From positions 775,828 through 839,827 of the forward strand of contig CP064994.1 of assembly GCA_016699975.1 (NCBI GenBank): DNA of 64,000 nt, given 5' to 3'. This document shows positions 4,912-62,690 of the stretch, one piece after another. The position numbers and the translations under genes are program-made. A model generated the notes under the pieces. The model did no database searches, was not told where the DNA came from, and saw nothing but the letters and a program-made list of their open reading frames with translations. This stretch comes from Candidatus Moraniibacteriota bacterium (GTDB lineage Bacteria > Patescibacteriota > Minisyncoccia > Moranbacterales > UBA1568). The stretch's first letter is position 1. Each line of letters opens with the position of its first letter.

Positions 4912-6228
4912 TCATTCTTTCTCAGGAAGAAAGGGGGTTCGTTTCCAATCGGGAGACTGTCGACAGACACGTGCCAAAAGCATTTCTTTTTCCGATTCGG
5001 AGAGAATTTTTTCTACCGCTTTTTCGAGTCGCATCCCCTGCGACCCTTTGACGAGAACCGTATCGCCTTTTTCGAGAAATCGAACGAGCTCCTCGCCAAG
5101 CTGATCTGGATTTTCGAAGAAGGAAATATGGTCCGAAGGAAATCCCTTTTTGAGAAGTGCTTCTTGTGCAGCACGCATTTCTTTTCCCAAGAGAAACGCG
5201 TGAGATACCCCGCTCTCGAAAATCATGCGAGCAACATCCTGATGCGCCGAAAGGGATTCTCCGCCGAGCTCGAGCATATCGCCGAGTGCGACGATGCGCC
5301 GACCCGACACCGGGAAATGTTGAAGCGTCGAAAAAGCCGCTTCCAGAGAACGAGGAGAAGCATTGTAGCTATCATCAAGAATGAACGATTCCTTCGCGCC
5401 CCTCAAAAGGCGGAGTCGACTGGGAAGCGGTTCGAACTTTGGAGCGCCGCCCTCACATCCAAAAGACTCATTTTCAAAAAGATACCGACCGCGCCCGCCG
5501 CGAGCGCCGCGAGGATATGGTGCTCCGCGAGTACGCCAGGGAGACGAACAGGAATGCTCTTCCCCGCATACTCGAGTTTAAAAGTGAGGCCGAGAGGAAC
5601 GGTGTCGCCATCCGAAAAAAGTCGGGTGTGTTCCTCGAATGTCCGCTTCTTTTTTGAAGCCGTACGAGAGAATCGATGCTCGTGTTTTTCTGAAAACGCG
5701 ATCACGCGCGGGTCATCGGCATTCAAAACGCCGAGACCATCTTCCGGAAGAGAGCGAATGAGTTTTCCCTTCTCGCGCGCCACAATCGAAATCGACTTAA
5801 AAAAATTCCACATGGCTTGTCGAGATGGCAGTGAGGACCCCAATTTTCGGATGGAGAAATTCGAGGAGATAGTCCATATCGCCGATTCGATCAATACCGA
5901 GTTCGAGAACAAGTATCTCGGGATAGAGGCGAGTCGGAATACAAAATGTATGAAGGAATCGAAAGGGAACCGGGAGCCACCTAAGAAAAGATCCGCCTCC
6001 GCCAGAACTTCCGAGAATCGTGAGTGGCACTCCGATTTCGTTATTGAGGTTCCCGAGATTTGAGCGCACTCGAAATGCGGATCCAAGCACAACTCGGATC
6101 GCTTCTTTGGTTGAGCTCTTCCCCACCGAGCCTGTAATCGCAAGCACAAGCGGCCGATGACGGCGAAGAATGGCACGCGCCATGAATCGAAGCGTTCGTT
6201 CCAAAATTTTGATATGCCATGATTTCAT
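4912..6228 (-). CDS. murF: UDP-N-acetylmuramoyl-tripeptide--D-alanyl-D-alanine ligase MurF, interrupted by two apparent frameshifts
   Basis: Three ORF fragments in two frames (5797..6228 N-domain ITGSVGKSSTKE/NNEIGVPLT; 5403..6176 middle VLNADD..; 4912..5406 C-domain DDSYNASP/LGDMLELG); frame breaks at an A7 run near 5800 and at c4/a4 runs near 5403. Confidence 0.8.
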
Positions 6229-6281
6229 ACAACTTGAAAGTCAATCATCGTCTGAAGAAGGAGAGAAAGAAACAAGAGGCT

Positions 6282-8039
6282 TCACCCTTTTCGCTCCGAC
6301 TCGGTGCGCGGAATACCGGAAGACTCGAGCAAAAATTTCATCACCTTTCCGAAGGTCGGGGCCGCACTCGACTCGGCCCATACGACATCTTTCGGATTAT
6401 CTATTTTTACCAAAACAACGAATTCCGGATTCTCAAGTGGAGCATAGCCCACAAACGATCCGATATTCATTCCTTCTTCGTAGCCTTTCTCGCCGCGCTT
6501 CGCGACCTGCGCGGTGCCAGTTTTCCCGACGACGCTATACCCGGGAACATCGGCGCGTTTTCCGTGGCCGTTTACTACCACATTGCGCAGCATCCCGCCA
6601 ATCTCGCGAGCGGTCGATTCGCTCACCACGGATCGGATTTCCTCGGGAGGCACTTCTTCACTCCTCCCATCGGAGAACAAGAGTCGCTCCACGATACGAG
6701 GTTTCATGAGAATACCTCGATTCGCAAGTGCCGCATAGGCATTCGCAATCTGAAGCGGTGTCACCGTTATCCCCTGGCCGAAGGAAGCGGTAAAAAACTC
6801 GATAGAGCGATTCGTATTTTTGAGATTCTGCATATTTCCGCTCGCCTCAGCCGGAAGGCGAACCCCTGTCTCCTGTCCAAACCCGAATCGTTCCAGATAA
6901 TTTCGAAAGCGGCTATTCCCGACCGAGCGCTCCACAAAAATAACACCCGTGTTGATGGATTCCTCAAGCACCTTCATCATCGTGACGCGGCCATATACTT
7001 TTTCTTCCGCGTTTCGAATCGCGTACCCTCCTTCTTTCACGACACCCGTATCCACATACTCCGTACCGGCGTGCACCTTCCCTTCTTCGATGCCGATCGC
7101 CATCGTAATCGGCTTCATGATCGAACCTGGCTCATACGTAAGACTCACCGCTGGATTGAGAAACGCTTCAACATTCTCTGCCTTCGCGTATTCGTTCGGA
7201 TTAAAGTTTGGGAGAGAAGCGAGCGCGCGGATACTTCCCGTCTTCGGCTCAAGAACCACAATCGTTCCGCCGTCTGCATGAAATTCATTAACCGCCTCAC
7301 GAAGAATTTTCTCTACTTCATACTGGAGAACCCGCTCCACGGTGAGAACAATATTCGCTCCATGAATTGGCGCTTCAAAGGTTCGTCCCGCAAGCGGAAT
7401 CCACCGGCCAGCCGCATCACGTTCGTTCGACACGGCGCCCCCGCTCCCGCGAAGCACTTCTTCAAAAGATGCTTCCACACCGTATTGGCCAACTGATTCA
7501 TCTTCCTTCATGCCCACAAAGCCGAGGGTTTGAGAAAGGAGTTCGTCCGCGGGATAGTAGCGGTAGACTTCGGGAAGGAGCCCTATTCCAGGAAGAGCAA
7601 GTGCTCGGATTCGCTCCGCTTCCTCGTCAGAGACGCGACGCTTTACTACTTCGAAGGGATCATTGGTTTTTGAAAATTTTTCTTCAAGGGTTGCTTCTGG
7701 CACGCCGACAATTTCCGAGAGGCGTCTTGCTGTTTCCTTTCCCTCTCCGATATGGGGTGGTACCGCATACACCAGGGAATATCGTCGGTTGACCGCGACC
7801 GGAGAAAGCCCACCGGCATCGCGCAAAAATATTTCTCCGCGATTTGAGGGAAGCACTTTTGTGACCGTTCGTTGTTCTTCGGCGGCGGCTCCATATTCAT
7901 CACTCCGAAGAATTTGAAGGACAAAAAGTCTGCCCGCCAAAACGGAAAAAAGTAGAAAGAGAAAAAGCACGAGAGAAAAAATTCTCCCATGCCTTTCCTT
8001 GTTTTCTCCGCGTCTTCGTTGTGGAACCGTTTTCCTCAT
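6282..8039 (-). CDS. ftsI: peptidoglycan D,D-transpeptidase (PBP2/FtsI class B penicillin-binding protein)
   Basis: 585 aa; N-terminal TM, dimerisation domain, transpeptidase motifs SIMKP(SxxK) and KTGTA. Confidence 0.85.
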   Translation of the reverse strand: MRKTVPQRRRGENKERHGRIFSLVLFLFLLFSVLAGRLFVLQILRSDEYGAAAEEQRTVTKVLPSNRGEIFLRDAGGLSPVAVNRRYSLVYAVPPHIGEGKETARRLSEIVGVPEATLEEKFSKTNDPFEVVKRRVSDEEAERIRALALPGIGLLPEVYRYYPADELLSQTLGFVGMKEDESVGQYGVEASFEEVLRGSGGAVSNERDAAGRWIPLAGRTFEAPIHGANIVLTVERVLQYEVEKILREAVNEFHADGGTIVVLEPKTGSIRALASLPNFNPNEYAKAENVEAFLNPAVSLTYEPGSIMKPITMAIGIEEGKVHAGTEYVDTGVVKEGGYAIRNAEEKVYGRVTMMKVLEESINTGVIFVERSVGNSRFRNYLERFGFGQETGVRLPAEASGNMQNLKNTNRSIEFFTASFGQGITVTPLQIANAYAALANRGILMKPRIVERLLFSDGRSEEVPPEEIRSVVSESTAREIGGMLRNVVVNGHGKRADVPGYSVVGKTGTAQVAKRGEKGYEEGMNIGSFVGYAPLENPEFVVLVKIDNPKDVVWAESSAAPTFGKVMKFLLESSGIPRTESERKG

Positions 8040-8077
8040 GGATTTCTTCCGACATCCTTTCTGCCATTTGGTATCCT

Positions 8078-8446
8078 TTAACGCCCTTTCCCGCCGTAAG
8101 CAATGGGGCCCGGTTCATCGACAGAGGTCGACTCCGTAATAGGCACCATATCAAGTCGAGCACTCGCCTCCTCGAGGCCGTAGAGGGAGCGAAGCTCTGC
8201 CTCTCGTATACGAAGTTTTTGCGATTCATCAGAAAGCTCTGCCATATTTTTTTCCGCCAGTCGCATCGAATATCCCGATACCGCATTTCGATTTACGGAA
8301 AAGAGATAGCCTCCCAAGGAAAGCGCAACAAAAATGGCAGAAAAAACAAGTGATCGATGAAACGAAGATCGAAAATGACTTCCCTTCGTTTCATCTTCCG
8401 AACACACACGATTTCGGTAGAGATTTTTTCTCCTCTTCATAGCCAA
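8078..8446 (-). CDS. ftsL: cell division protein FtsL-like (small bitopic membrane protein)
   Basis: 122 aa, single TM helix plus coiled-coil segment, located between rsmH and ftsI as in dcw clusters. Confidence 0.5.
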   Translation of the reverse strand: MAMKRRKNLYRNRVCSEDETKGSHFRSSFHRSLVFSAIFVALSLGGYLFSVNRNAVSGYSMRLAEKNMAELSDESQKLRIREAELRSLYGLEEASARLDMVPITESTSVDEPGPIAYGGKGR

Positions 8447-8491
8447 TTTTTCTTTGTATTTTTGTGATCGTTCCTGCGAACTTCGCGCGTT

Positions 8492-9448
8492 TCAGGAAAC
8501 CTTTTCTGCGGTGCGAAGTTTTGCGCTCCGGGCCCGCGGGTTTTCAAGGCATTCCGTTTCGCTTGGAACCATTGCTCGCTTCGTCACCAATTGAAGCCGC
8601 GCCCTCTTTCCGCACCGGCAGACGGGAAAATCCCTGGGACAAACGCATCCCCTGGCGTTCTCCAGAAATATCCGCTTCACGAGACGCTCCTCGCCGGAGT
8701 GGAATGAAAGTACCGCTATTCTCCCTTTCGGACGAAGCATTTCGATCGCTTCGTATAAAAATTTCTCCAGCACTTCACGTTCCCGATTGACCGCGATACG
8801 AAGCGCCTGAAACACTTTGGTCGCTGGGTGAATCGAAGCTTTTCGATCCCGCGTATGCGATTTCACGAATTCAGCAAGCTGTATCGTCGTTTCAAAAGAC
8901 GTTTCTTTTCGCGAAAAGGCGATCGCTCTTGCGAGCTCCCTCGCTCCTCGAACTTCCCCAAAATCGGACAGGATGCGAGCGAGTTCCCCCTCATCAACCG
9001 TGCGAAGCAGTTCCTCTGCCGTCACTCCTTTCGACGGATCAAGTCGCATGTCAAGCGGCCCGTCCCGAAGAAACGAAAAGCCACGCGATGCTTCTTCAAG
9101 TTGATCCGAGGAAAATCCGAGATCAGCCACAATTGCCGAGACATCCGACATCCCGTGCGCCCGAAGCGTTTCTTTGAGTTCCGAAAAAGAAGCGTGAACG
9201 AGAATGATATGGCCACTCTCGAGCGCACTACGGTATCGGTCATCACGCTCCAAGCGCTCCCGGAATCGTTGCAGAGCCTCCTGGTCGGCATCAAATCCGA
9301 GAAGCGTTCCTTCCGGAAGAATTTTTTCAAGAACGAGGAGCGCGTGCCCGCCTCCCCCCACGGTGGCGTCCACAACGATATCTCCCCTCATCACCCGAAG
9401 CGCCTCGAGAACTTCCCGCGGCATCACAGGAACATGCAGTGTCGGCAT
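8492..9448 (-). CDS. rsmH: 16S rRNA (cytosine1402-N4)-methyltransferase RsmH (MraW)
   Basis: HVPVM..DATVGGGGHA SAM-binding motif; 318 aa. Confidence 0.9.
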   Translation of the reverse strand: MPTLHVPVMPREVLEALRVMRGDIVVDATVGGGGHALLVLEKILPEGTLLGFDADQEALQRFRERLERDDRYRSALESGHIILVHASFSELKETLRAHGMSDVSAIVADLGFSSDQLEEASRGFSFLRDGPLDMRLDPSKGVTAEELLRTVDEGELARILSDFGEVRGARELARAIAFSRKETSFETTIQLAEFVKSHTRDRKASIHPATKVFQALRIAVNREREVLEKFLYEAIEMLRPKGRIAVLSFHSGEERLVKRIFLENARGCVCPRDFPVCRCGKRARLQLVTKRAMVPSETECLENPRARSAKLRTAEKVS

Positions 9449-9457
9449 AGCAAAAAA

Positions 9458-9892
9458 TCAGTATGCTCCTATCTTGCCCAGCTCTTCCGCGATACGCTCG
9501 GAATTTTCTTCCGCCGCTTTCTGGTATCCTTTCCAACTTTGTTCGTCCCATACCTCGAGGCGATTCCACAATCCCACGACGATCACATCTTTCGAGAGTC
9601 CAGCATACGATTTGAGTGATTCAGGAATGAGGATTCGGCCTTGACTGTCAACTTCCGTATCGAATGCGCCCGCAAGGAGAAGCCGCACAAAACTTCGTGT
9701 TCCCCCTTCCCCAATTGGCATTGATCCCAATTTTTCGGCGAGCGTTTCCCATGTTTTGATGGGATACACAAACAAACACCGGTCAAGCCCGCGCGTCACC
9801 ACGACCCGCTCTCCGAGTTCACTCCGAACTTTGGAAGGCAAAGCGAGTCGTTTTTTCGCATCAATGCTGTGAGTGTATTCACCAATGAACAT
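9458..9892 (-). CDS. mraZ: transcriptional regulator MraZ
   Basis: MFIGEYTHSIDAKKRLALP.. duplicated MraZ domains, 144 aa. Confidence 0.9.
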   Translation of the reverse strand: MFIGEYTHSIDAKKRLALPSKVRSELGERVVVTRGLDRCLFVYPIKTWETLAEKLGSMPIGEGGTRSFVRLLLAGAFDTEVDSQGRILIPESLKSYAGLSKDVIVVGLWNRLEVWDEQSWKGYQKAAEENSERIAEELGKIGAY

Positions 9893-9938
9893 AGCGGCCG
9901 AGAACGAGACGGCTTTTTAAAAAGTTCCTCCAGAATTT

Positions 9939-9953: not shown

Positions 9954-9961
9954 TTTTATTT

Positions 9962-11055: not shown

Positions 11056-12473
11056 TCAATAAGCCTCCGCAATTTTCAGCAGCAAGCGAACCGGCGCGCC
11101 TGCCGCTCCTTTCGCAAGGTATTCCCCTTCGACGGCAGTCATCCGCGGAGCCATATCGATATGCACCCATCGATACCCGATCGCAAATTGCGCAAGAAAC
11201 GCCGCGGCCGTAATCGCCCCTCCCCATTTTGTTCGACCAATATTCGCAACATCGCCAAACGTACCACGAATTTCCTCGTCATATTCTTCCCAGAGAGGGA
11301 GGGGCCACACAAAGTCTCCGGAAAGTTCTCCGAGCTCACGAATACCTTTTTCGAGTTCAGCATCTCTCGTAAAAATTGCCGAGGCTCGCTCGCCGAGGGC
11401 AACGAGCGCTGCTCCCGTTAACGTTGCCACATCAACGACGAGTCTCGGATGGTATCGCTTCGCATAGTGCAGTGCGTCTGCGAGGATAATTCTTCCTTCG
11501 GCATCGGTATTGAGCACCTCTATCGTTTTCCCACTCATCGAGCGAAGCACGTCTCCGGGTCGATAACTCGAACCGGATGGCATATTCTCAACCGCCGGAA
11601 TAAGTGCCACCAAATTCTTCCGCACACCAAGTCGCGCCGAAAGCGAGAGCGCGTGAAGTACAGCGGCGCCGCCCGACATATCCATATTCATTCCAAGAAT
11701 TGCATCCGACGGCTTCAAATTAATACCTCCGGTATCGAAGGTCACTCCCTTCCCCACAAAGACAATGGGCGATTCGCGAACATCTTTTGCTCCCCGATAC
11801 TCGAGAAGAATGAGTTTCGGTGGAATCGCCGATCCCTTCCTACGCCCACGATTCCGCCCATGCCACACTTTCGCATTTCTCGCTCTTCGAGAATTTTGAC
11901 GCGCATACCTCTTTGCGCGGCGATACGTTTCGCTTCGAAAGCAAGTGTTTCAGGCGTCACCTCCCCTCCCGGAAGATTTGCAAGACGCCGACACGCATTC
12001 ACTTCTTCTCCGATTGTCGCTCCGCGTTTGCATCCTTTTTGAAAGCGAGAAGAAGCGCCTGTAAAAATAATGTCCCCAACAAAAGGAAATCCTTCTGGTG
12101 GTTCGGTCAAAAATTCTACAAACTGAAAATTGGCCATTTCACTCTGCGTTGAAATGATTTCTCCATACTCCTCATCGGACAAAGTGAGGGATGGAAAGCA
12201 AAACTCATGAGTTTCCAGAAGACAGCGCCGAATACGATTCGATTTGGCAAGCGCAATCATTCTCCGAAGAAGAAGTATATATTTTCGGCGCGTCATGGCA
12301 TTGGCATCCGGAACCGAAAGGAGAATTTCCGTTTCCCCTGTTTCATTTCGCGTGACTTCGTCCGCCGCCGAAGAGACAATACGAATCCGAGCACTCTTTC
12401 CTTCCGCACGGTTCTTCACTTGCGAAAAACGATATCGAATCGTATGAGGGAGCATAGGAGAAAAAAACAGCAA
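11056..12473 (-). CDS. pepA: leucyl aminopeptidase (M17 family), interrupted by one apparent frameshift
   Basis: N-terminal fragment 11742..12473 (..NLPGGEVTPETLAFEAKRIA..GMGGIVGVGR) and C-terminal fragment 11056..11868 (PKLILLEY..VGKGVTFDTGGINLK..NTDAEGRIILADAL) are in different frames; junction about 11860-11870. Confidence 0.8.
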
Positions 12474-15903: not shown

Positions 15904-16428
15904 TTAGACACGGCGGGGTTTCCGAGGTCGACATCCTCCATGTGGCAGCGGGGTAATATCGCGAATAGAAAGCAGTATGAGTCCGTTGTTCGCAAGAGCG
16001 CGAACCGCTGCCTCTCGCCCGCTTCCCACCCCTTTTATAAACACTTCTACTTCTTGGAGACCGAATTTACGAACTTTTTCTACCACTTCGCTTACGACCT
16101 GAGTCGCCGCATAGGGCGTCGATTTCTTCGCTCCCTTAAACCCAAGATGTCCAGAGCTTGACCACGCAAGCGTCGCTCCGTTCATATCGGTAAGCGTTAC
16201 AATCGTATTGTTATAGCTGCATTGAATACTTGCGCGACCACGAGCCACTTGATTTTTCCATTTCTTCTTTTTCTTCGCCAGAGCACCGGCCGAGTCAAGA
16301 GCAGAATTTTCCGAAGAAACAGTTTCTTCGGTTGACTCTTGTTCTTCTGATTTTTCTTTACTTCCGTTGCGGTCATAATTTGAAAATTCACAAACACTGT
16401 TCTTTTCTGGAAAGAGTGAAACCCTCAT
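15904..16428 (-). CDS. rpsK: 30S ribosomal protein S11 (with about 50-aa acidic N-terminal extension)
   Basis: ..GRASIQCSYNNTIVTLTDMNGATLAWSSSGHLGFKGAKKSTPYAA.. S11 core. Confidence 0.9.
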   Translation of the reverse strand: MRVSLFPEKNSVCEFSNYDRNGSKEKSEEQESTEETVSSENSALDSAGALAKKKKKWKNQVARGRASIQCSYNNTIVTLTDMNGATLAWSSSGHLGFKGAKKSTPYAATQVVSEVVEKVRKFGLQEVEVFIKGVGSGREAAVRALANNGLILLSIRDITPLPHGGCRPRKPRRV

Positions 16429-16448
16429 TCACACCTCCACAACGTTTT

Positions 16449-16838
16449 TTAGGTCTTATCCGCTGCCTTCTTTCGTCCGCTTCCCATAGTCTTGCGAACG
16501 TTACCACGAACAGTTCGAGTATTCGTTTTCGTTCTTTGGCCGCGAGCCGGAAGATTCTTCTGGTGGCGCCCCCCTCGGTAACACCCGATATCCTTGAGTC
16601 GCTTGATATTCGTTTTTACCGCGTGACGAAGTTCACCTTCTACACGATGCTTTTTCTCGATCACTTCTCGCAGACGACTCGCATCATCAAGCGAAAGATC
16701 TCGAGAGCGTGTGTTCGGATCAATGGAAAGTTCATGCAGAATTTTTTGACTTGTAGTAAGGCCGATGCCATAGACATACGTGAGCGCGATTTCGATCCGC
16801 TTCTCATCAGGAATGTTGATACCGGCGATACGAACCAT
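16449..16838 (-). CDS. rpsM: 30S ribosomal protein S13
   Basis: MVRIAGINIPDEKRIEIALTYVYGIG.. S13 signature. Confidence 0.9.
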   Translation of the reverse strand: MVRIAGINIPDEKRIEIALTYVYGIGLTTSQKILHELSIDPNTRSRDLSLDDASRLREVIEKKHRVEGELRHAVKTNIKRLKDIGCYRGGRHQKNLPARGQRTKTNTRTVRGNVRKTMGSGRKKAADKT

Positions 16839-18696: not shown

Positions 18697-19801
18697 TTAG
18701 TGGTACCGTCCCATCCCGAGTATGGTAATGATTGTACCGATCATGGAAGTAATGATAGTAAATATCCAAGCACGCATCACCACTTTCGGTTCGGGCCAAC
18801 CGATCGCTTCGAAATGATGGTGAAGCGGTGCGGCGAGAAACACTTTCCGTTTCAAAAATTTCTTACTAAAAAGTTGTATCGCCACACTCCCCGATTCGAG
18901 CACATAGAGAAACGCGATCACAAAAAGAGACAAGGCGGAGTTTGTGAGCAGAGAAACGACGCCCAACGTCAAACCGAGCGACACTGCTCCCGTATCTCCC
19001 ATAAAAAAACGCGCCGGGTAAATATTGAACCAGAGAAAGGCAAGGAGGGCTCCAGAAATCGCCGCGCAAAACGCCGCGAGATCCATCTTGTTCTGAAAAA
19101 AAGCGATGAGCGTAAACGACGCAAACGCACAGAAGAGGACGCCTCCATTCAGTCCATCGAGTCCATCGGTTTCATTCGAGGATATCGCGGCAAAAGAATG
19201 ACAAATATGAAAAGTGGAATATACCACCATCCGATCGAGAAATCGCCCACCGCCGGCACATGGATGCGGTCCCAACCGAGTTTCGCATAGAACCACCATG
19301 CTCCCGTTCCCGCAATTGCAAAGAGCCACCAAAATCGAAGGAGGAACCGCATACCTCCTCCTTTATTCGTTCCGAAACCGCGCACGCTCATCCAGTCATC
19401 GAAAAGTCCGAGGATGCCGCCCGCAACAAGCGCCGACAGCGGAAGCCACACCTGCGGCCGACTCAAAAAATCGAGTCGTGCAATGAAGTTCGTTGATGTA
19501 AACTCGGCAAGTGCCGGAAAAACAAAATGCGAATAGAGCGCGAGAACGAGAACCGGAAACCACAAAAGCACGCCACCCATTGTGGGAGTTCCCGCTTTTT
19601 GGCATGAAGGCTATTCACGAACGTAAGCGGATCTCCCGAGACCCCGCGATCTTTAATGCGAATCCCAATTTTCTTCACGTACAAAATGTGCGTCCACACG
19701 GGCGTCAAATAGAAAGCGAGACAGAAGGAAAGAAATCCCGTCACCAAAACCTTGAGAGCATTCACGACTTCTGGAATGGTTTCGATATTCGCAAATTGCA
19801 T
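18697..19801 (-). CDS. mraY: phospho-N-acetylmuramoyl-pentapeptide transferase MraY, interrupted by two apparent frameshifts
   Basis: Fragments 19463..19801 (N-terminus), 19149..19580 (..MGGVLLW..LGLFDDW..) and 18697..19332 (NETDGLDGL.., PARFFMGDTGA..) lie in three frames; junctions at a t5 run near 19590 and near 19150-19200. Confidence 0.8.
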
Positions 19802-22875: not shown

Positions 22876-24684
22876 TTACTCGTTTTTTGAGAAATGAAAA
22901 ATGGTTGTTTCGTGCATCTTCTCTGTGCGAGCGCCCGGAAAAATTTCTCCAAGCATTTTTTCGAGAAATGGGAAGCGCCCAGTCATCTCCGAAGGAATGC
23001 GTATGCCATCAACGTCTTCGTGAGCATCAAAGCGCCTGTCCAGAAAGTATTGTCTCACGATTTCCTGGTGTTCTTGGATCGAAAGAGACGGGTCGAGAAA
23101 GAGATCTTCCAAAAAGACATAATCCTCACTGTCTTCTTGGGCGAGGTAATCAGCAGCCAGAATGTACCCGACTTGACGATCGTCTCTCATGATAATCGCA
23201 CTGTAATTGTCAGGAAAATTCATTCCTCCCTCTCCGTCGTCTTCCCCTTTTCCGATCTTCTGGAGAATCCTTCGAATATGCTCTTCCTGATCATTTCGAG
23301 CTGTTGTATCGGGAAATGTTTCCCCAAGGAATGAGCGCAGGCGCGAATGCTTCCAGCTGTCGATTGAGAGCCCATAGTAGCGCTGCGTCTTCTCTGTGCT
23401 TTCGGAGTCATAGTAGACGTACTCGATGGAATGATGGAACCAGTCGGAGTACTCCATATCCCCGTGGAGAGGCTTCGCCGTGACCCGTTCAAGCTCGCAC
23501 TCGCCCGTCACAAGTCCTCCGTCATCATTGTAACTCGTCCCTATAACAATTTTGAGCCGTTTTCCCTTTGCGGAGTACGTATCGATAAGGTGCTGTTTGA
23601 GCTGTTGGTATGCCTGAGCGATCATAACGTTTTCTCCTTTTTGAACGGCTCTGTTGGCGATTTCAATGTTGTCGATAGCCACGGTAATCATGTTTTCATC
23701 TTCGCAGTAGACCAAAACCGACTGCGCGATAATATCCTCTTCTCCGGTTGTGTCTTTCTTGGAAACGAGGAAATAGGACATATCTTCTCGCACAATATAC
23801 TCACGGTTTTTGGAAGAAGTAAATGGCATGCAGCAGTCGGTATAGTCGCCGCATACCCATCCTCTGGGATCGGATTTTTTGGCGATTTCCAAACCGAGCG
23901 CTCTCGTTTCAACTTTTCCCGACAGAGATTCATACAGAGCGCGCACTTGTTTTTCATCTTCTTCCCTGAGAACAATCTTTCCTTTGAGGTACGCGGTAAG
24001 TGTGTCTTTCTCTGCGGCGCGTTCCGCTTCTTTTTCATACCACTGTTGGGAACTCTTCCCATTCACAATCGCGCTCATTGCATTGTGCGTTTTTTTGCTC
24101 AGCTCCAGGCGATTGCGGTTATTGAGCGCCAGGAACAGAAAAAATTCTACGAATTCTCTTTTCTGAACATCTTCGTGCGCAAAAACGTTCTCAATCGCTT
24201 GGGACGCGCATGCTTCCAAAAACAGCGCCTGGGTTTTTCGGTCACCGTCTACGGGGAAATCTCCTTTTTTCGATTCGACGACCGCGTCAAAAGCATCTTG
24301 AAGCAACGTGACGTTTTCGGCAAAAAAGTGCGCTTGCATTTCCACAAAGAGCGCCGCCGTTTCTCGGCCCGAACGACTCATGACAGACGAAAGAGCCCGT
24401 GTCATATGAGTGCGAAACATTCCACTGTCGGGATCCGAAAAAGCGTTCCGAAGGTGCGTGAAGAGTTCGTCCCACTCCTCGGGCGAGAATGCGTCTTTCC
24501 ACGACTCTCTGTTTTCTATGTTCAGCGAAGAAGGCGTTTGCCTGTCAAAAGCGAGCATTCTCCTGTTTTTTACCGCCTTGTTGAATTCGCTGTCGAACCT
24601 CCCCGCTTTCTCGGGATAGCTCTCTTTGTCTTGGTCTCGCTTCTTTTTGAGCTCTTCTACCGTGCGGACATCACGCTCGCGCAT
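22876..24684 (-). CDS. hypothetical protein, 602 aa, largely alpha-helical N-half and a C-half with Cys-rich motif GWVCGDYTDCCMPF
   Basis: long uninterrupted ORF with host-like codon usage; no family recognised by eye. Confidence 0.5.
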   Translation of the reverse strand: MRERDVRTVEELKKKRDQDKESYPEKAGRFDSEFNKAVKNRRMLAFDRQTPSSLNIENRESWKDAFSPEEWDELFTHLRNAFSDPDSGMFRTHMTRALSSVMSRSGRETAALFVEMQAHFFAENVTLLQDAFDAVVESKKGDFPVDGDRKTQALFLEACASQAIENVFAHEDVQKREFVEFFLFLALNNRNRLELSKKTHNAMSAIVNGKSSQQWYEKEAERAAEKDTLTAYLKGKIVLREEDEKQVRALYESLSGKVETRALGLEIAKKSDPRGWVCGDYTDCCMPFTSSKNREYIVREDMSYFLVSKKDTTGEEDIIAQSVLVYCEDENMITVAIDNIEIANRAVQKGENVMIAQAYQQLKQHLIDTYSAKGKRLKIVIGTSYNDDGGLVTGECELERVTAKPLHGDMEYSDWFHHSIEYVYYDSESTEKTQRYYGLSIDSWKHSRLRSFLGETFPDTTARNDQEEHIRRILQKIGKGEDDGEGGMNFPDNYSAIIMRDDRQVGYILAADYLAQEDSEDYVFLEDLFLDPSLSIQEHQEIVRQYFLDRRFDAHEDVDGIRIPSEMTGRFPFLEKMLGEIFPGARTEKMHETTIFHFSKNE

Positions 24685-24751
24685 ATGCTCGGTAAGGACG
24701 CGAAGTTGAGGTGTGTTTTTGAGACTTTCAAAGAGTTTGGGAGATTGTTCG

Positions 24752-25975
24752 TTAAATCCGTGAACGCGCAGAGCATAACTTTGTGCATGGGATCGAATGC
24801 GATTTCCTTTTCCCAGGGACGAATGAGCTGACGCTCGTCGATGGTATCCCGCCCTTCGATAATACGGATGAGGGTTTGGGAGAACAGTTTATTTGATTCT
24901 TCATCGTATTCATCATAGTGATTGTCATCATACTCATTGTCGTACTCATCGTATTCATTCCCATTCTGTTCATCTGTGTTGTGTTCACTTTGTGCATTTC
25001 CGCTTTTGATGTTTTGTCGATTCGTCCCCCCTGCGCAATCGCTTCATACTCCGTTATCATGCTCCGTAAGAAAGAAACGTCCACGCCCGGCGCGAGCACA
25101 AGCTGTCGCACAGCTTCCTTGAAAGCATCGCTCGCATCTTCCGGAATACGAATGTTGAATTTCTGCATATTCGCCTCCCGCTCGAGCTCTTTCATCGTTC
25201 GAAAGGGGGTGCCGGAGCGTTCTCGGACATAGATGGTCGGATCAAAGGAACCCAGGAGAGGATTGAGACTCTCGAGATCAACTCCCGGAACAAGAAGCGG
25301 TTCGAAAACAAGACGCGTGATATATTCCCGGTCTTGAGGAGATCGGGAACGAAATGTGTTCATGAACAGAAGGTGATCGTGAGGATTCTCCCAAAAGTCC
25401 GAAAGAGAAAGAAGAAGCCTTTTTGTTCGCGCATCGCCCAGAATACGCTCCAGAGTTTCGAAGTTTTCTTTCACTTCGAGATCTCTGGCGCCGATCTGTT
25501 CTTTTTGTTCTGAATACGCTTGATTGATTTCTTCACCGGAAATGACTTCGGAACAAAAAGGGTAGAGGAGTACAACCAACCGAGTATTATCTTTGACGGA
25601 TTCGTAGACGGAGCGTTGGATCATCCGAAACGAAGTGAGTATTTTCCCGGCCCTATCCATCATTCCACGTTCCAAAAAATATATCACTCTTTTCTTCGCC
25701 GCTTCACGGATTTCGGGGTCTTGCGGGGAGAGGTTGAAGCGTTCGAGGATTTCCTGGGCGCCATCGATCTTTCTGCGTTTCAAGTAATCCATCGTCCTTT
25801 CCTTCGCCGCTTCATGAACGTGGGGATCAAAACACAGATCTTTATTTTTTTTGAAGAAAGTATCAATGGTGTCCGAGTTTTTCTCTTGCAGCACTCGGAC
25901 AGCCTCTTCCCTAAGTTTTGCTGCTTCTTGCGGGGGGTCAGAAACCTCGGCAAGAGAAGAAATATTTTCTCGCAT
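24752..25975 (-). CDS. hypothetical helical-repeat protein, 407 aa, with Met/Thr/Asn-rich low-complexity C-terminal tail
   Basis: long ORF; tail NTTQMNRMGMNTMSTTMSMMTITMMNTMKNQ encoded by imperfect tcatNNN repeats at about 24900-24990. Confidence 0.5.
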   Translation of the reverse strand: MRENISSLAEVSDPPQEAAKLREEAVRVLQEKNSDTIDTFFKKNKDLCFDPHVHEAAKERTMDYLKRRKIDGAQEILERFNLSPQDPEIREAAKKRVIYFLERGMMDRAGKILTSFRMIQRSVYESVKDNTRLVVLLYPFCSEVISGEEINQAYSEQKEQIGARDLEVKENFETLERILGDARTKRLLLSLSDFWENPHDHLLFMNTFRSRSPQDREYITRLVFEPLLVPGVDLESLNPLLGSFDPTIYVRERSGTPFRTMKELEREANMQKFNIRIPEDASDAFKEAVRQLVLAPGVDVSFLRSMITEYEAIAQGGRIDKTSKAEMHKVNTTQMNRMGMNTMSTTMSMMTITMMNTMKNQINCSPKPSSVLSKGGIPSTSVSSFVPGKRKSHSIPCTKLCSARSRI

Positions 25976-26064: not shown

Positions 26065-27376
26065 TTATGGCACTACCGTGGTCGCACGAACAATCTCAAG
26101 GGCTTTGTCGAGCTGAGGATCGCGTTTCGCATCATAATCCTCGTTCGAAAGTTCTACTTCGATATCCGGAAATATTCCTTCTTTATCAATGAGCTTTCCC
26201 TTCGGCGTCAGCCAATGTGCAACCGTCACCTTGAGCGATGTCTCTCTCGTCACCGAAAGGAGCTCCTGAACGGAACCTTTTCCGAAAGATTTTTTCCGAC
26301 GAGACGAATATCGTCTCGGTTTTCACGAAGCGCCGCCGCGAGAATCTCGGAGGCACTCGCCGACCCCTCATTGATAAGAATAACCGTCGGGAGATTCCCA
26401 ATGAGCGTCTTTCCCGAGGTCAGGCGCTCGCTCTTTTTTCGATCACTGTCTTCTTCGATCACCACCACTTTCCCTTTCGGGAGAAGCGCGCTCGCCATGT
26501 CGATCGCAGCGTCGAGCCGGCCCCCGGGATTATCGCGCAGGTCAAGAATCAGGCCGCGCGCCTTTCGAGACGCCACCTCTTTCACCGCATTCGAAAATTC
26601 TCTCGCCGTATCATCTCCAAACGTATTCACTTTAAGAAGTGCGATCCCATCGTCTCGTATCGTGAGTTTCACACTTTTCACATTAATAACATCTCGACGA
26701 ACAGTGATGTCGCGCGTCTCGCGATCCCCCTCTCGAAATACGGTGAGCTTCACTTCGGTTCCCTTTTTCCCACGCATTTTGTCCCGCGCTTCCTCGACAC
26801 TCATGCCGGACGTTTCTTCGTCGTTTATCTTGAGAACTTTATCGCCGGATCGAAGTCCCGCTCGCTCCGCGGGCATTCCCTCAAGCGGTGCCACAATCGT
26901 CAAAATTTTGTCCTTGATGCCGATTTCCGCGCCGATTCCTTCAAAAGTTCCCGACAAATCTTCTTCGAAAATTTTGTTCTCCTCGGGGTCGAAGAATGTC
27001 GTATAGGGGTCGTCGGTCGCGGCAAGCATTCCTTTGATCGCACCATACACAAGCTTCGTTGAATCAAGTTCATTGGCGGAAAAAATTTCACATGAAGCAG
27101 ATCCCACGTTTTCCAAAAAGTGGAGAGGTCGGGGCGAGTTTTTTCCGCTCGAGTCGAGAGAATTCCAGAGAACGATTCCCCACTTCCTGTTTTCTCAGAA
27201 AGAAATTTCCCGCGCTCCACACCAAGAAAATATGCGCCCAGAAGAAGGAGCGCAAAGAAGAAAATGCGAAGAAGTGGAGAAGACTTCGATCGCCGAGGCG
27301 TGGGGTGAGAAGAGAGGTGCGACTGAGGAGGCGCCACCCTCTCTCGCTCTTCGGAAGACATCGGGTCATCACTCAT
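26065..27376 (-). CDS. ctpA: carboxyl-terminal processing protease (S41, PDZ-containing), interrupted by two apparent frameshifts
   Basis: Fragments 26900..27376 (TM N-terminus), 26250..27116 (LVYGAIKGMLAATDDPYTTFFDPEE.., PDZ GLRSGDKVLKIND, ..LDLRDNPGG..) and 26065..26253 (..LKVTVAHWLTPKG..) in three frames; breaks at a6 near 27075 and t6 near 26290. Confidence 0.8.
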
Positions 27377-31090: not shown

Positions 31091-31113
31091 GAAAGAATGA
31101 GGAGGGACGGCAT

Positions 31114-33055: not shown

Positions 33056-33131
33056 GAAATTCCTTCTCCTCCCGCCCGAAGAAATCGCACTGAAGAAAGT
33101 GAAACATGAAAAGGAAGATCAAAAGAAAAAA

Positions 33132-34341: not shown

Positions 34342-34378
34342 GTTCCGCGCAGTACCACCTGCGCGGAACACCTTTTTT
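34342..34378 (+). terminator. plus-strand intrinsic terminator (11-bp perfect stem gttccgcgcag/ctgcgcggaac + TTTTTT) lying antisense between two minus-strand island genes
   Basis: seen directly; T-tract only on plus side. Confidence 0.55.
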
Positions 34379-34421
34379 GCTCACTCTCTCTTTCCCGCCG
34401 AGTGAGCCTGGCGGTTCATGA

Positions 34422-40904: not shown

Positions 40905-41481
40905 CATTTCCGTTTTCTTCCGATTTTGGTATCCTAAACGAGATAAGAGAGTTCTTTAGTTCGGAAAGAAGGCAGTACAACGAAGCTGGTCCATATTGTT
41001 GCCGAAAAGGAAATAAGCGTAAAGAAAGAGCAGAAATTCGCTCAATGAGAACACGAATCCGAAGCGAAGGTCGCAGAGAAAAAACAGGATCGTATCAGGA
41101 AGGATTTTTGAAATGAAGAAGAAATGGTACAAAAAGCGATTCTCCTCCTCAATACAGACAGGAAAGGAGTAATGCGCGCGAAGAGAAAGAGAAACCTCAA
41201 TGGAAGCGTCGTGTATAAGAAAAAAACGGAGAAAAATCAGCATTCGTCACGTAACCTTTGATTGATCGTGCAGTAAATCTGCACCGAGGAAAAAGAAAAC
41301 CTCATTCAAAATTCAAATTGGTAACACCAATTTCTTAGCAGAAGAGTCGAGCGCGCGGCGAGAAAAATACCAATCCCGCAAAATCAAAAACACATTCTTT
41401 ATAGCTGCTTTGTTGACAGAATAACCATTCGAACCATGACGAGAGACGTCAACTTCCCAGGCTTCTCTCGCAAAAATACGT

Positions 41482-42591
41482 ATGCATCCCCTTCTTCCCT
41501 CTCTTCAAGAAGAATTCAATCAAATAGAAATGGAGCTCTCGCATCCGAGCGTTCAATCGGACCAAAAAAGCCTGACTCGTCTTGCAAGACGGCGTGCGGA
41601 ACTCTCTGAGATTCTCGAGAAATCGCAAGATATAGAACGGCTCGAGCATGCAATGCGAGAGAACGCCGAACTCTTGAATACCGATCAGGAAGACGAGCTC
41701 AAACTGCTCGCGCTCGAAGAAAATACCGTGCTCTCGCGAGAAAAAGATGAGCTCGAAAAAGCATTCGAGCGACTGCTCGTGCCCAAAGATCCTCGCGATG
41801 CGCGCGACGTCATCGTGGAAATTCGTGCGGGCGCAGGAGGAGACGAGTCTGCCCTCTTTGCGGGAGATCTCTTTCGCATGTACGTTCGCGCGGCCGAAAA
41901 GGCAGGATGGAAAACCACACTGCTTCATACAAACGAGACTTGGATCGGCGGCTTTAAAGAAATCGTCTTTGAAATCACGAAAGGTTCTGGTCCTGACGTT
42001 TTCCGACTTATGAAGTACGAGTCGGGCGTTCACCGCGTCCAACGCATACCAGAAACTGAGAAATCGGGGCGCATTCACACCTCGACAGGAACGGTGGCCG
42101 TGTTGCCACAAGCGGAAGAAGTAGACCTTCTCATACAACCGAACGACCTTCGTATCGATACCTATTGTTCTTCGGGACCAGGGGGACAATCGGTCAACAC
42201 CACCAAAAGTGCAATTCGCATTACCCACCTCCCAACCGGCCTGGTCGTTACATGCCAAGACGAAAAGTCGCAGCACAAGAATAAAGACAAAGCACTCAAG
42301 GTTTTGCGCTCGCGCCTCCTCGAAGCCGAGGAAGAACGCCTCGCAAAAGAGCGGGGGGACGCGCGGCGAAGCCAAATCGGAACTGGAGACCGAAGCGAAA
42401 AAATCCGCACCTACAATGTCCCGCAGGATCGCGTGACGGACCACCGCATCAAGGTTTCATGGAGCGGCATCGAAAGAATTCTTGCGGGAGAAATTGCAGA
42501 CATCTTTACTCGACTCGAAGCAGAGGATATGGAGCGCCGCCTGAATAAGGAAACGCAAAAAGAAAACGATTCTTCCAACGAACCTTCCTAA
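41482..42591 (+). CDS. prfA: peptide chain release factor 1
   Basis: GGQ motif ([11 protein letters not shown]), PxT-type tripeptide region ([14 protein letters not shown]) indicating RF1. Confidence 0.9.
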
Positions 42592-46783: not shown

Positions 46784-47896
46784 TCACTTCCCTTCAAGTT
46801 CACGAAGCGATTCGAGAAGTTTTCGTTCCTCCCGTGAGAGATACTTCGGAATGCTGACAAGAACCGTGACAAGGTGATCTCCTCGACTCCATCGACTCCC
46901 CAGCGTAGGAATTCCTTTTCCTCGAAGTCGAAATACCTCTCCGGATTGCGTCCCGGCGGGAATTTTTATCACCGTCTCGCCGTCGAGCGTCTTCACAGAA
47001 ACCGAGTCTCCTAAGGAGGCGCGAGTTGCGGAGATGGACGCACAAGAGAAGACATCGCTCCCGCCCCGCTCAAAATTCGGTTGTTTTCGTATATGAACCA
47101 CCAACATGATATCACCGGGCGGCCCTCCTCGCTCTCCTGCTTCTCCTTCACGCGACAGAGACAGGGCTTGTCCATCTTCAATACCCTCGGGAATATCAAG
47201 AGAAAATTCTCTTGTCTCTTTCTTCTGTCCCGAGCCGCGGCAACTTGAACAGGGGTCCCGAAATGTTTTTCCGCGTCCCCCGCATGCTTCACACGAAACT
47301 ACTTGCTGCACTACTCCCAAAAAACTCCGCACGGACTGTCGCACTCTTCCTGCCCCACCGCACACCGAGCACGTCGTCTCGGACGAACCCTTTTTTCCAC
47401 CTGTCCCCGAACATGATTCGCAACGTCCCGTCCTTCGAACCGAAACTGACTTTTTTACCCCTTGCGCCATTTCCTCGAAGGAAATCTCCACATCAACACG
47501 AATATCGGCGCCCCGGCGCAGAGATGTTCGTTCCCCGCCAAAGCCGCCACCAAAAATGTTCGAGAAAATATCCTCGAAACCCGAACCTTCAAAACGAAAA
47601 TCGCCTTGGGAAAATCCTTCAAATCCCCTTCCGAAATCAAAGCCACCAAATCCTCCGCCCCCGCCCGAGGATCCAGCCCCCATATTTGAAAAGTTTTCCC
47701 CGAAACGGTCGTATTGCGCACGCTTGTCCGCATTCGAGAGGACTTGATAGGCTTCGTTTATCTCTTTAAATTTGGCTTCGTCCCCCCCTTTTTTGTCGGG
47801 ATGATACCGATGGGCGAGTTTTCGATATGCCTTTTTGATTTCGTCCGCCGAAGCCGATTTTGAAACACCGAGTGTTGCATAGAAATCCTTTGCCAT
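46784..47896 (-). CDS. dnaJ: molecular chaperone DnaJ
   Basis: J-domain with HPD (RYHPDKK), G/F-rich linker, four CxxCxGxG zinc-finger repeats. Confidence 0.9.
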   Translation of the reverse strand: MAKDFYATLGVSKSASADEIKKAYRKLAHRYHPDKKGGDEAKFKEINEAYQVLSNADKRAQYDRFGENFSNMGAGSSGGGGGFGGFDFGRGFEGFSQGDFRFEGSGFEDIFSNIFGGGFGGERTSLRRGADIRVDVEISFEEMAQGVKKSVSVRRTGRCESCSGTGGKKGSSETTCSVCGGAGRVRQSVRSFLGVVQQVVSCEACGGRGKTFRDPCSSCRGSGQKKETREFSLDIPEGIEDGQALSLSREGEAGERGGPPGDIMLVVHIRKQPNFERGGSDVFSCASISATRASLGDSVSVKTLDGETVIKIPAGTQSGEVFRLRGKGIPTLGSRWSRGDHLVTVLVSIPKYLSREERKLLESLRELEGK

Positions 47897-49026: not shown

Positions 49027-50066
49027 TTAAAGGCCGTTCTTCACTTTATTGTGTTTGTGTTCCTCGAAGGTCACGGCAAAAAATGTCTCGCCTGTTTTTG
49101 GATTATTGAGGAAAAAATAGTACGGATTCGACAGAGGAAAAAGTGTCGCTCGCAGAGAAGCGAGTCCCGGATTCGATATTGGTCCGGGCGGAAGACCGCG
49201 GTATCGATACGTGTTGTATGGTGAGTCGAAACGCGTCTCTTCGATCGAGTGTTGCACTTTGGATTCGCCGCGCGCATATTCGAGCGTTGCATCGCTTTCG
49301 AGTGCATGGTTGTCACGAAGGCGCCTCCAAAAAAGATCACTCACCATTCTTCGATCACGCTCAATCGCTTCGGCAGACTGATTCGCGTTTCCAATTTCGC
49401 GCTCGAGAATGCTGGCAAAAGTTACCGTTTCAAAGACAGTTTTCCCTTGTTGATCGGCTTCTTTCCGCAAATCATCCGAAAAACGACGAGAAAAATTCCC
49501 AAGCATTTTCTCAAGAATACTCCCTGGCGACTCTCGAATCGCAAACGTATAGGTATCTGGAAACAAAAATCCTTCAAGGGAGGCATTTTCAGGAGAGAAG
49601 CAAGTATCGGATACGCTTCCCGCCATTCGGGGAGCGGATTCCTTGCGAGTTCCACAAATTTGTCGCCGTCAAACTCATTTGCGGAAAGTCTCGATGCCAT
49701 TTTTTCAATCGTCCATCCTTCCGGAAAGGTGAGCGTTACTTCCTCAGGCTTTCCAGATTTTTGAAGCAGTGTCGCGACCACTTCGGGCGCCGTCAAGTTT
49801 CCGGAAATAACGATACTCCCAGAAGGCACTTTCCCACGAAGATTCCCTCGAAACGCACTCCACAAAAAATACCATCGGGAAGAAACAAGCCGATCCGCCT
49901 CGAGTCTTTTGGCGACACTTTGAATATCCTCGCCCTCTGCTATACGAAAGACTCGTTCTCCACGGTATTCTCCGCGCAGCGTTTTTGCACGATACACAAA
50001 AAGACCGGCTGCAAGACCGGCCACCATTCCTCCAAGAAGACACAGTGAGAGAAACTTTTTCAGCAT
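49027..50066 (-). CDS. mltG: endolytic murein transglycosylase MltG (YceG-like), interrupted by one apparent frameshift
   Basis: N-terminal ORF 49422..50066 (TM + ..LTFPEGWTIEKMASRL..) and C-terminal ORF 49027..49626 (LEGFLFPDTY.., ..YRGLPPGPISNPG..) in different frames. Confidence 0.75.
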
Positions 50067-50865: not shown

Positions 50866-50922
50866 AAAAGTATTTTTTAAAAGTATTTGCGAATGAAAAG
50901 CGGAAGCATTCTTAGTCCACCG

Positions 50923-60519: not shown

Positions 60520-60897
60520 TTACGATGACGACTTCCTTGACGATTCCGGCAGTACTTCCAACTCCTCCAAAAATCCCCGATACAAACTGAGGACTCGAAC
60601 GGCCTCAGGACGATCAATCGAAAATTCAGATTTGGAACGAGACAGGAGCCGTGATTCAATCTCTTGCCACCGACGAAGAAGCACGCGTTCAGACGCAAAG
60701 GGCCGCTCTTTTGTCCCAAAGCGACCCTTCTTCATATCGGCACGAAAGGGGCGAAGAAAAAAGAGAAGTACGATATCGAGAAAGAGTACCAATGAGTAGA
60801 CCGCGAGAAAACCAAGGAGAAGCGAAAACGTCATGGACTGACGAATCGCTTTCCAGATTTCTGTCACCGTCGAAATAAAATCGCCGGAAGTTTCCAT
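60520..60897 (-). CDS. possible small membrane protein (single TM), hypothetical
   Basis: ORF 60520..60924 between gatA and eno, co-directional; TM MTFSLLLGFLAVYSLVLFLDIVLLFFL. Confidence 0.3.
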   Translation of the reverse strand: METSGDFISTVTEIWKAIRQSMTFSLLLGFLAVYSLVLFLDIVLLFFLRPFRADMKKGRFGTKERPFASERVLLRRWQEIESRLLSRSKSEFSIDRPEAVRVLSLYRGFLEELEVLPESSRKSSS

Positions 60898-60920
60898 GGT
60901 GGTAAACGGAGCATGAAAAA

Positions 60921-62400
60921 TCAAACAAGGCTTTGGTCGAGATCCGGATTCTGTCCGGCATTCGATCGTTCGAACGCGAAGGCGGCATTCAGTATTCCTT
61001 CCTCATCAAACCACTTTCCCATAAGTTGTCCCCCAATCGGAAGAGGCGTCCCGTCTTCTTCCATAGTCCCGATCGGAAACGAAATCGCGGGAATTCCCAC
61101 CAAATTTGCTGTCACGGTATAGATATCCGAAAGATACATAGCAAGTGGGTCCTCTGTTTTCTCGCCAAAGCGAAATGCCGCTTCCGGCGCCGTGGGAGAA
61201 AAAATAAAATCAACATCCAAAAAAGCTCGTTCAAATTGGTGCCGAAGAAGCGCGCACTTTTTGCGCTTTGAGATAAAACTTATCTGCGTACCCCGCAGAG
61301 AGCGCGTAGGTTCCGAGCATAATGCGGCGTTTTGCCTCAGATCCGAAACCATATTCTCGACTATCGAGATACGTTTCGAAAAGAGCGGAGGAATCGACTG
61401 AGGACGGCTCCTCATTGTCAACAGAAAGTCCGAAGCGAATACCATCTAAGCGTGCCAAATTCGAACTTACTTCCGCCGGCATGAGAATATAGTAGATGGG
61501 AAGCGCTGCCTCAAGAAACGAAAATGAAAGCGGTACGATATGCGCGCCGAGCGATTCGAAACGGTTGATTGCCGCTTGGGCAAGCGCGTACACGCGCTTA
61601 TCGAGCGTTTCGGTAAAATATTCTTTGGGAATGCCGATTCGCTTTCCCACAATATCGCCGGTCAAGAAATTTTCGAATCGTTTCCCGCCGCTTTCTGCGG
61701 TCGTTGCGTCCATCGGATCTTCTCCTGCAATACGAGAGAGCACGATCGCCGCATCTTGAACGCTCTTCGTGAGGGGCCCAATTTGGTCAAGGCTTGAGGC
61801 CATCGCCAAAAGTCCATGGCGAGAAACACGTCCATAGGTAGGTTTGAGTCCCACAATGCCGCAAAATGAAGCTGGCTGGCGAATCGATCCCCCAGTATCG
61901 GAGCCAAGAGCCCATACCGCAAGATCCCCCGCAACTGCTGCTGCCGAACCACCCGAAGAACCGCCCGGCACTCGCGACAGATCGTGAGGATTCCTCGTCG
62001 GATGATAGGCGCTCGACTCGGTGGAAGAGCCAAACGCAAATTCATCCATATTGGTCTTCCCCAAGAAAACCGCGCCCACGTCCCGCAGATCCTTCACCAC
62101 GGTCGCATCGTACGGCGCCACATAATTGTCGAGTATTTTTGAAGCGGCCGTCGTCCGCAGGCCTTTGACGCACAAGTTATCTTTGAGTGCTCCCGGGATA
62201 CCCGCCATAAGATCGACATTCTCCCCTCGTCGAATTCGCTCGTCCACTTCGTGCGAGGCGCGAAGGGCCTCTTCTTTCATGAGAGTAAGATACGCCCCAA
62301 TATCGGGATCTCGCTTTTCGATCGCCTCAAAATATGTCTCTGTCAAGCGTACAGAGGTCGTCTTACCGTTCGTCAGTTCTTGATGAAGATGCCGAATCAT
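60921..62400 (-). CDS. gatA: Asp-tRNA(Asn)/Glu-tRNA(Gln) amidotransferase subunit A, interrupted by one apparent frameshift
   Basis: N-terminal ORF 61231..62400 (amidase signature GGSSGGSAAAVA..GSDTGGSIRQPA) and C-terminal ORF 60921..61445 (..AMYLSDIYTVTANLVGIPAISFPIG..) in different frames; break at t5 run about 61250. Confidence 0.8.
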
Positions 62401-62403
62401 ATT

Positions 62404-62690
62404 TTAGAATACCGCTTTTACCAGAAGGTTCTCTCCCAAACGTGCCGGAAAGAGTGATACGATTCGTTCTCGTTCATCGGGATTGGAGAGGCGAACAACA
62501 TCTTCTCGAAGCGCGTTTGCTCTTCCAGGAAGAAGGTCGAACGCTTCGACATCGTCGGTCGGTATCTTTCGAGCGCCGAAAAAAGACTGAGGATCGAAGA
62601 AAGATCCCGGCGAAACTTTTCGATGTCTCGTTCTTTCATGCCGATTCTCGCAAGTCGCGCGATGTGAATGACTTCCTGATGAGAGAGCAT
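62404..62690 (-). CDS. gatC: Asp/Glu-tRNA amidotransferase subunit C, interrupted by one apparent frameshift
   Basis: N-half in ORF 62418..62690 (..EVIHIARLARIGMKERDIEKF..ILSLFSALE) and C-half in ORF 62404..62694 (KIPTDDVEAF..ALREDVV..); break = a3 where a4 is needed at about 62568. Confidence 0.7.

Follow-up and report, generated by a model that had tools for sequence, protein, structure and literature searches.

Does a bacterium whose murF, mraY and gatCA genes appear broken really lack them, or is its sequence record in error? The question is raised by a stretch of 64,000 nucleotides (nt; hereafter the window) of Candidatus Moraniibacteriota bacterium, contig CP064994.1, positions 775,828 to 839,827 of the forward strand, in which conserved genes appear as two or three adjoining open reading frames (ORFs) in different frames. 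An initial annotation, made from the sequence alone, had attributed these breaks to systematic homopolymer indel errors in uncorrected long-read data, an attribution that is supported here by other assemblies, by matches to repaired proteins and by the Nanopore origin of the record. What was observed directly is where the indels lie and of what type they are, that other assemblies lack them, that the repaired proteins have exact matches, and how and at what coverage the metagenome-assembled genome (MAG) was assembled. Because assemblies of the same population lack the indels, the repaired proteins match exactly and the source is a low-coverage Nanopore assembly, the frameshifts are almost certainly consensus errors of a long-read (Oxford Nanopore) metagenome assembly that was under-polished with short reads. 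The broken genes are real in the sequence record, but they are an ordinary, well-understood artefact and biologically nothing new; the organism's murF, mraY, gatCA, rpsK and other affected genes are intact.

Conserved genes are split across reading frames

We located 20 small insertions and deletions (indels) in the window, 18 of them deletions and two insertions; two of the deletions, at 5621 in murF and in a GC repeat of gatA, remove 2 nt (Table 1). About 17 sites fall in coding regions, in 11 unrelated genes, and three are intergenic, so that ~11 of roughly 60 protein genes in the 64-kb window are broken or miscalled. Pfam profile coordinates identify same-strand neighbouring ORFs in different frames as consecutive pieces of one domain. 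The Peptidase_S41 profile of ctpA is matched at positions 2–120 in ORF 26253–27194 and at 120–165 in ORF 26068–26322, and separate fragments carry profile positions 1–94 and 102–273 of YceG (mltG) and 2–356 and 348–445 of Amidase (gatA). The Glyco_transf_4 and Glycos_transf_1 domains of a GT4 glycosyltransferase lie in two frames (32249–33118 and 31845–32486), as do MraY_sig1 and then Glycos_transf_4 (80–158) in mraY.

Together with the contig and sister-ORF alignments described below, the Pfam coordinates bear out the splitting of murF, pepA, mraY, ctpA, GT4, a Wzy-like gene, mltG, gatA and gatC at the places given in the initial annotation, including its two breaks each in mraY and ctpA, in both of which two 1-nt deletions were located. 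Three-frame translations at the junctions found its coordinates accurate to a few bases, and the five runs that it had listed (A7 in murF, T6 and A6 in ctpA, T5 in mraY and A3 in place of A4 in gatC) are exact. For murF it had proposed two breaks; the splitting is correct but the count is not, four indels being present. Only three murF ORFs are visible despite these four indels because the +1 and the -2 change lead to the same frame. The nine named genes are all affected, but the list was incomplete, as rpsK and ligA are affected too. The description of the lesions as single-nucleotide changes in homopolymers holds for the most part, with 18 of 20 in homopolymers, but not for the two 2-nt deletions or the one dinucleotide repeat.

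Independent assemblies of the same population carry intact genes

Contigs from other samples were retrieved by exact-protein look-ups with intact neighbouring genes and then aligned to the window at base level. The same-population contigs are 99.5–100% identical to the window and cover ~25.7 kb of it. They come from the Logan assemblies of SRR15021097 (L001, L003, L007 and L106), SRR12767646 (L004 and L107) and SRR32934939 (L006), from European Nucleotide Archive (ENA) assembly ERZ27239125, which has MEGAHIT-style contig names (L002, L005 and L105), and from two further ENA assemblies (L008 and L009); in all, the ENA assemblies used were ERZ27239125, ERZ15185987 and ERZ28614324. Within the ~25.7 kb covered lie 14 small indels (four in murF, two in ligA, one each in pepA, rpsK, mltG, gatA and gatC, and three intergenic), and the window is the odd one out at all 14. 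Where a site is covered by two or three samples, the samples concur, and this extends to L004 and L106, which are richer in single-nucleotide polymorphisms (SNPs). Six of the affected genes are present in these contigs as intact single genes with the expected Pfam domains, encoding MurF (439 amino acids, aa), PepA (466 aa), S11 (157 aa), YceG (346 aa), GatA (493 aa) and GatC (95 aa).

The balance of indels and SNPs in the closest contigs is equally informative. Over 3.5 kb at murF and ftsI, 4 indels and 0 SNPs separate L003 from the window; for L001 the figures are 3 indels and 2 SNPs over 7.9 kb. Indels that equal or exceed SNPs in number do not look like natural variation in coding DNA.

Exact look-ups in the contig index with the LCP protein, a 407-aa protein, pgk, enolase and the repaired MraY and CtpA proteins (P0001 and P0002) gave no match, and mraY and ctpA are therefore confirmed at the protein level only. 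A scan of contigs of species-representative genomes found no close relative; the best hit had 76% enolase identity and no synteny on the needed side, so that the source MAG is not among these representatives.

Repaired proteins match intact proteins exactly

For mraY, ctpA and gatC, repairs were predicted from the junction sequence alone by adding one base to each run: on the minus strand, A5 to A6 and T4 to T5 in mraY, T6 to T7 and A6 to A7 in ctpA, and A3 to A4 in gatC. The repaired MraY (368 aa) and CtpA (432 aa) are each an exact full-length match to a protein already in a Logan assembly, and the repaired GatC (95 aa) matches exactly over its full length in both Logan and ENA. Apart from the frameshifts the fragments are therefore undamaged, and the genes occur intact in nature.

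Sister genomes lead to the same picture at greater distance. Their ORFs were fetched with the LCP protein as query, at LCP amino-acid identities of 56–83%. Single ORFs were found for CtpA (424–448 aa, seven genomes), GT4 (390 aa), the Wzy-like protein (539–566 aa) and MltG (361 aa), whose alignments to the window break into two or three collinear segments in different frames (two for the Wzy-like gene). Over its whole length the repaired GT4 aligns with the 390-aa ORF of sister contig L097, and both have the junction peptide NAEGVLRAY. No exact match was returned for the repaired GT4 or Wzy-like protein with any of several start codons, and a homologue search with a chimeric 2,331-aa query of six repaired genes gave 0 significant hits among 8000 candidates. 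Collectively, the intact contig genes, the exact repaired proteins, the end-to-end GT4 alignment and the sister single ORFs confirm that the fragments join into full-length homologues, and the comparison of junctions with sister genomes that the initial annotation had suggested found the sister orthologues in frame as single ORFs.

The lesions follow homopolymer length and trace to a low-coverage Nanopore assembly

Runs of at least 3 bases contain 18 of the 20 indels and make up 21% of the bases of the window (binomial P about 1e-10). Per run, the error rate is 0.03–0.04% for lengths of 1–2 nt, 0.4% for 3, 0.9% for 4, 5% for 6, 29% for 7 and 50% for 8. The two indels outside homopolymers are the loss of one unit in gatA, from (GC)4 to (GC)3, and an extra C at ~63385 in ligA. 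In the directly compared regions the density is ~55 indels per 100 kb.

The window encodes five intact proteins whose sequences are the same as those of QQS20712, QQS20719, QQS20722, QQS20745 and QQS20750 at NCBI, entries labelled 'MAG: ... Candidatus Moranbacteria bacterium' with IPL87_ locus tags. The link from the window to the CP064994 record rests on these five exact proteins and a contig of 1,048,819 bp. CP064994 is the circular 1,048,819-bp MAG Hirt_18-Q3-R61-65_MAXAC.378_cln (order Moranbacterales, family UBA1568) from Danish activated sludge, with a coverage of 10.93x for Nanopore and 5.38x for Illumina (Singleton et al. 2021, Supplementary Data 3, PMC8012365). It was assembled with CANU on Nanopore reads and then polished with Racon, medaka and Illumina Racon (Singleton et al. 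2021, PMC8012365). Nanopore assemblies of this kind keep homopolymer indels that lead to frameshift errors in gene calling, and metagenomic bins below ~40x require Illumina polishing (Sereika et al. 2022, PMC9262707). A coverage of 11x plus 5x is well inside the regime in which residual errors are expected.

The proposed chain of events is a simple one. Nanopore basecalling would miscount runs of identical bases, mainly by losing a base; at ~11x Nanopore and 5x Illumina coverage, polishing with Racon, medaka and Racon would leave roughly one wrong run per 2–3 kb; and a wrong run within a gene would shift the frame, such that one gene is read as two or three ORFs. Published consensus errors of Oxford Nanopore R9.4.1 data (Sereika et al. 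2022, PMC9262707; Kastor, PMC12007338) share these features with the window. In both, errors are concentrated in homopolymers at a rate that climbs with run length and break genes into adjoining ORFs of different frames, and they are worst at low coverage and with weak short-read polishing. We find no essential difference between the two; the window has two 2-nt deletions, the loss of a GC repeat unit and one insertion outside a run.

Several points weigh against an origin in Nanopore consensus errors. The evidence stands at the level of assembled contigs and proteins, and that the Logan, MEGAHIT and SPAdes contigs derive from short reads is something that we infer, as is the platform of the Logan runs. 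The intact state of GT4 and the Wzy-like gene is known only from sister genomes, not from the same population. Two events depart from the classical homopolymer error, namely the extra base at 63385 in ligA and the loss of a GC unit in gatA, and 0 errors in 141 runs of length 5 leave a gap in the otherwise rising rate. Finally, the spread is uneven, with four indels inside 365 bp of murF and none in the 5 kb at 19.7–24.7 kb; zero indels in the latter interval is within Poisson expectation (P about 0.07), and the murF cluster may reflect a local dip in coverage.

Gene decay, frameshifting and recoding

Genuine pseudogenisation would mean that a strain in reductive decay has truly lost murF, mraY, gatCA and others. 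The deposited sequence does contain the lesions, and members of the Candidate Phyla Radiation (CPR) have reduced genomes and a presumed dependence on hosts (Singleton et al. 2021, PMC8012365). The pseudogenes of reduced or host-restricted bacteria likewise appear as many conserved genes frameshifted in a small genome. Decay is nevertheless very improbable, as the initial annotation had also judged, and the near-identical genomes contradict it: all tested genes are intact in such genomes from at least three other samples, where the lesions of the window are absent. The fragments show no secondary decay, with repaired MraY, CtpA and GatC 100% identical to intact versions, and in the closest contigs indels are at least as numerous as SNPs; the frequency of indels rises with homopolymer length. 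Furthermore, the targets are not biased to dispensable genes. They include S11 and the window's only gatCA, only ligA and only murF, and rpsK, murF, mraY, gatA, gatC and ligA are essential genes.

Alternatively, the differences in run length could be real, with the frame restored during expression by programmed ribosomal frameshifting or by transcriptional slippage at poly(A/T) tracts, or the tracts could be phase-variable. Slippage-type rescue at poly(A/T) has been described in insect endosymbionts, the genome here is small, and most sites are A/T runs of 5–8 bases. As in programmed +1/-1 frameshifting (prfB, dnaX) and transcriptional slippage, the shift of frame falls at a short homopolymer in a conserved gene. 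However, the shifts of the window are kept in 0 orthologues, the seven sister CtpA genes, the sister GT4, Wzy-like and MltG genes and the same-population contigs all being in frame. They are scattered over 11 unrelated genes, and three indels are intergenic, where rescue is unneeded; prfA of the window is intact. Several sites are G/C runs of 2–5 bases or a GC repeat, which are unsuited to such a mechanism, and the low-coverage Nanopore origin accounts for the pattern fully. We therefore consider this explanation even less probable than decay, and hold it just as improbable that some of the poly(A/T) run-length differences are real in the strain and tolerated through slippage or phase variation. 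If they were, a CPR bacterium would be a second example of homopolymer-based rescue after insect endosymbionts.

An alternative genetic code, by which intact genes would look split under table 11 through UGA recoding, has a negligible chance of being correct: the organism belongs to the CPR and some CPR lineages use code 25, but the fragments lie in different frames and not in one frame with stop codons, the long genes ftsI, lepA, murJ and enolase read through under table 11, and the affected genes are single table-11 ORFs in other assemblies.

Consequences for annotation

The value of the finding concerns data quality. The affected CPR genome is public and described as 'high-quality, circular'. 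Should ~55 indels per 100 kb apply to all 1.05 Mb of the genome, the number of wrong runs could reach several hundred. CPR metabolic reconstructions that draw on such records could conclude wrongly that peptidoglycan synthesis (murF, mraY, mltG) or Gln/Asn-tRNA amidation (gatCA) has been lost, and ORF calls throughout the contig should be held provisional until re-polishing. Fragments have already entered NCBI nr. The 'hypothetical proteins' QQS20699 and QQS20697 are the N- and C-terminal pieces of MurF (window 5800–6228 and 4915–5406), the 288-aa 'S41 family peptidase' QQS20721 is the middle piece of CtpA (26253–27116), and the 270-aa QQS20705 is the C-terminal piece of PepA (11059–11868). 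The 90% cluster that holds the MurF pieces also includes the intact 439-aa MurF from Logan/ENA.

Individual lesions

Table 1. Affected genes and intergenic sites in the window. Base letters of runs are given on the + strand unless the minus strand is stated; L numbers are same-population contigs.
Feature	Position	Strand	Lesion	Run in window	True run	Remarks
murF	4912–6228	-	four indels			3 ORFs; intact 439-aa Mur_ligase_M/C gene in L003, L004
murF, indel 5805	5799–5805		+1	A7	A6	
murF, indel 5690	5685–5689		-1	T5	T6	
murF, indel 5621	5615–5620		-2	A6	A8	
murF, indel 5441	5438–5440		-1	T3	T4	
pepA (Peptidase_M17)	11056–12455	-	1-nt deletion, ~11839–11841	CC	CCC	intact 466 aa in L001
rpsK (S11)	15904–16376	-	1-nt deletion, 16351–16355	T5	T6	~codon 8; intact 157 aa in L001
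Run at rpsM stop, counted intergenic	16445–16450		1-nt deletion	T6	T7	overlaps rpsM stop codon; no coding effect
mraY	18697–19801	-	1-nt deletions, 19596–19600 and 19192–19195	T5; A4	T6; A5	3 ORFs
ctpA (PDZ + Peptidase_S41)	26065–27361	-	1-nt deletions, 27080–27085 and 26290–26295	A6; T6	A7; T7	3 ORFs
Wzy_C / O-antigen-ligase-like membrane protein	30164–31845	-	-1 frameshift, ~31137–31141	C5	probably C6	
GT4 glycosyltransferase	31842–33004	-	1-nt deletion, 32360–32362	C3	C4	
mltG (YceG)	49027–50066	-	1-nt deletion, ~49592–49594	GG	GGG	intact 346 aa in L007
Intergenic	50873–50878		1-nt deletion	T6	T7	
gatA (Amidase)	60921–62400	-	2-nt deletion, ~61252–61257	(GC)3	(GC)4	
gatC	62404–62690	-	1-nt deletion, 62567–62569	T3	T4	extra base in L105, L106, L107
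Intergenic	62976–62979		1-nt deletion		AAA (- strand)	three independent contigs contradict window
ligA, partial at window end	63061–64000	-	-1 at 63470–63475 (indel 63474); +1 at ~63385			

For the Wzy-like gene, the frame change and its approximate site are established, and the C5 run is probably the exact site of repair. The gatA gene is intact in L106 and L107, where its product contains ...KAQKVRALLRHQF...; a repair of gatA as a 1-nt deletion or as A5 to A7 proved wrong, the independent contigs showing a missing GC. In ligA, the +1 change is an extra C (minus strand) at a single C outside any run, ~90 nt from the -1 change. This compensating pair garbles ~29 residues and creates no stop codon, and the HHH_2 Pfam match of the product reaches only 1–25 of 64.

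The ligA pair is invisible to ORF inspection, and seemingly intact ORFs of the contig can be wrong too. The rpsK ORF in the window runs upstream to a false ATG and has a wrong N-terminus. A codon-usage Viterbi segmentation, tried as a frameshift counter, was too noisy and served as a guide only.

Further suspect regions

Three other places in the window are open to the same suspicion or to a related one. The whole of 34100–36000 on the minus strand is free of Pfam matches and holds four overlapping ORFs in different frames (34422–34919, 34891–35217, 35184–35666 and 35667–35897). The signature is the same as in the confirmed frameshifted genes, and the region may hold a further broken gene that belongs to no known family. 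The 407-aa ORF at 24752–25975 (minus strand) has an unusual C-terminus rich in Met, Thr and Asn, ...MNRMGMNTMSTTMSMMTITMMNTMK..., and shares ~130 nt with the open frame of the gene that follows (22876–24888, minus strand); among recorded proteins, the exact 407-aa sequence occurs only in the NCBI MAG. At the 3' end of this ORF (~24.75–25.0 kb) there may be a further frameshift, or one long gene may have been split in two.

The third difference is larger. At ~60628 (60600–60650), within a small membrane-protein gene at 60520–60924 (minus strand), the window lacks 177 bp (59 codons, in frame) that are present in L107 at 2555–2732 (SRR12767646), giving a 134-aa ORF in the window and 184 aa in L107. 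The deletion junction has ATCGG/ATTCGG microhomology with one mismatch. This in-frame deletion could reflect a true allele of the strain or a collapse during assembly.

Strain variation, gene content and gene order

The contigs of SRR15021097 are identical to the window in places and elsewhere diverge by up to ~0.8% over a whole contig, for example in L106 at 60.7–64 kb. In dnaJ (window 46900–47300), ~12 SNPs relative to L007 are clustered within ~110 bp. This patchy SNP divergence suggests co-existing strains or recombination in the population. L106 also has a 5-bp tandem duplication of AATGA at 2405–2409, in the ligA–gatC spacer (window ~62910). The duplication is absent from the window and from L107, and L105 agrees with the window over the part aligned there. 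Unlike the homopolymer errors, the duplication looks like a genuine strain indel.

The gene set of the window is typical of Patescibacteria (CPR), and the minus strand predominates. It comprises mraZ-rsmH-ftsL-ftsI-murF, a block of ribosomal protein genes and rpoA, pgk, mraY, scpAB, ctpA, the LCP protein gene, glycosyltransferases, five tRNAs, tsf, rpsB, prfA, prmC, dnaJ, mltG, lepA, murJ, eno, gatCA and ligA. A KhpA-like KH-domain gene comes after murF. The mraY gene lies outside the mraZ-rsmH-ftsL-ftsI-murF cluster (window 4434–9892), ~13 kb off and adjoining pgk. Antisense ORFs of 330–470 aa at 4849–6063 (+), 23431–24831 (+) and 41449–42444 (-) face the real genes murF, a 602-aa gene and prfA and have 0 Pfam matches; such ORFs are prone to miscalling, above all where the true gene is fragmented.

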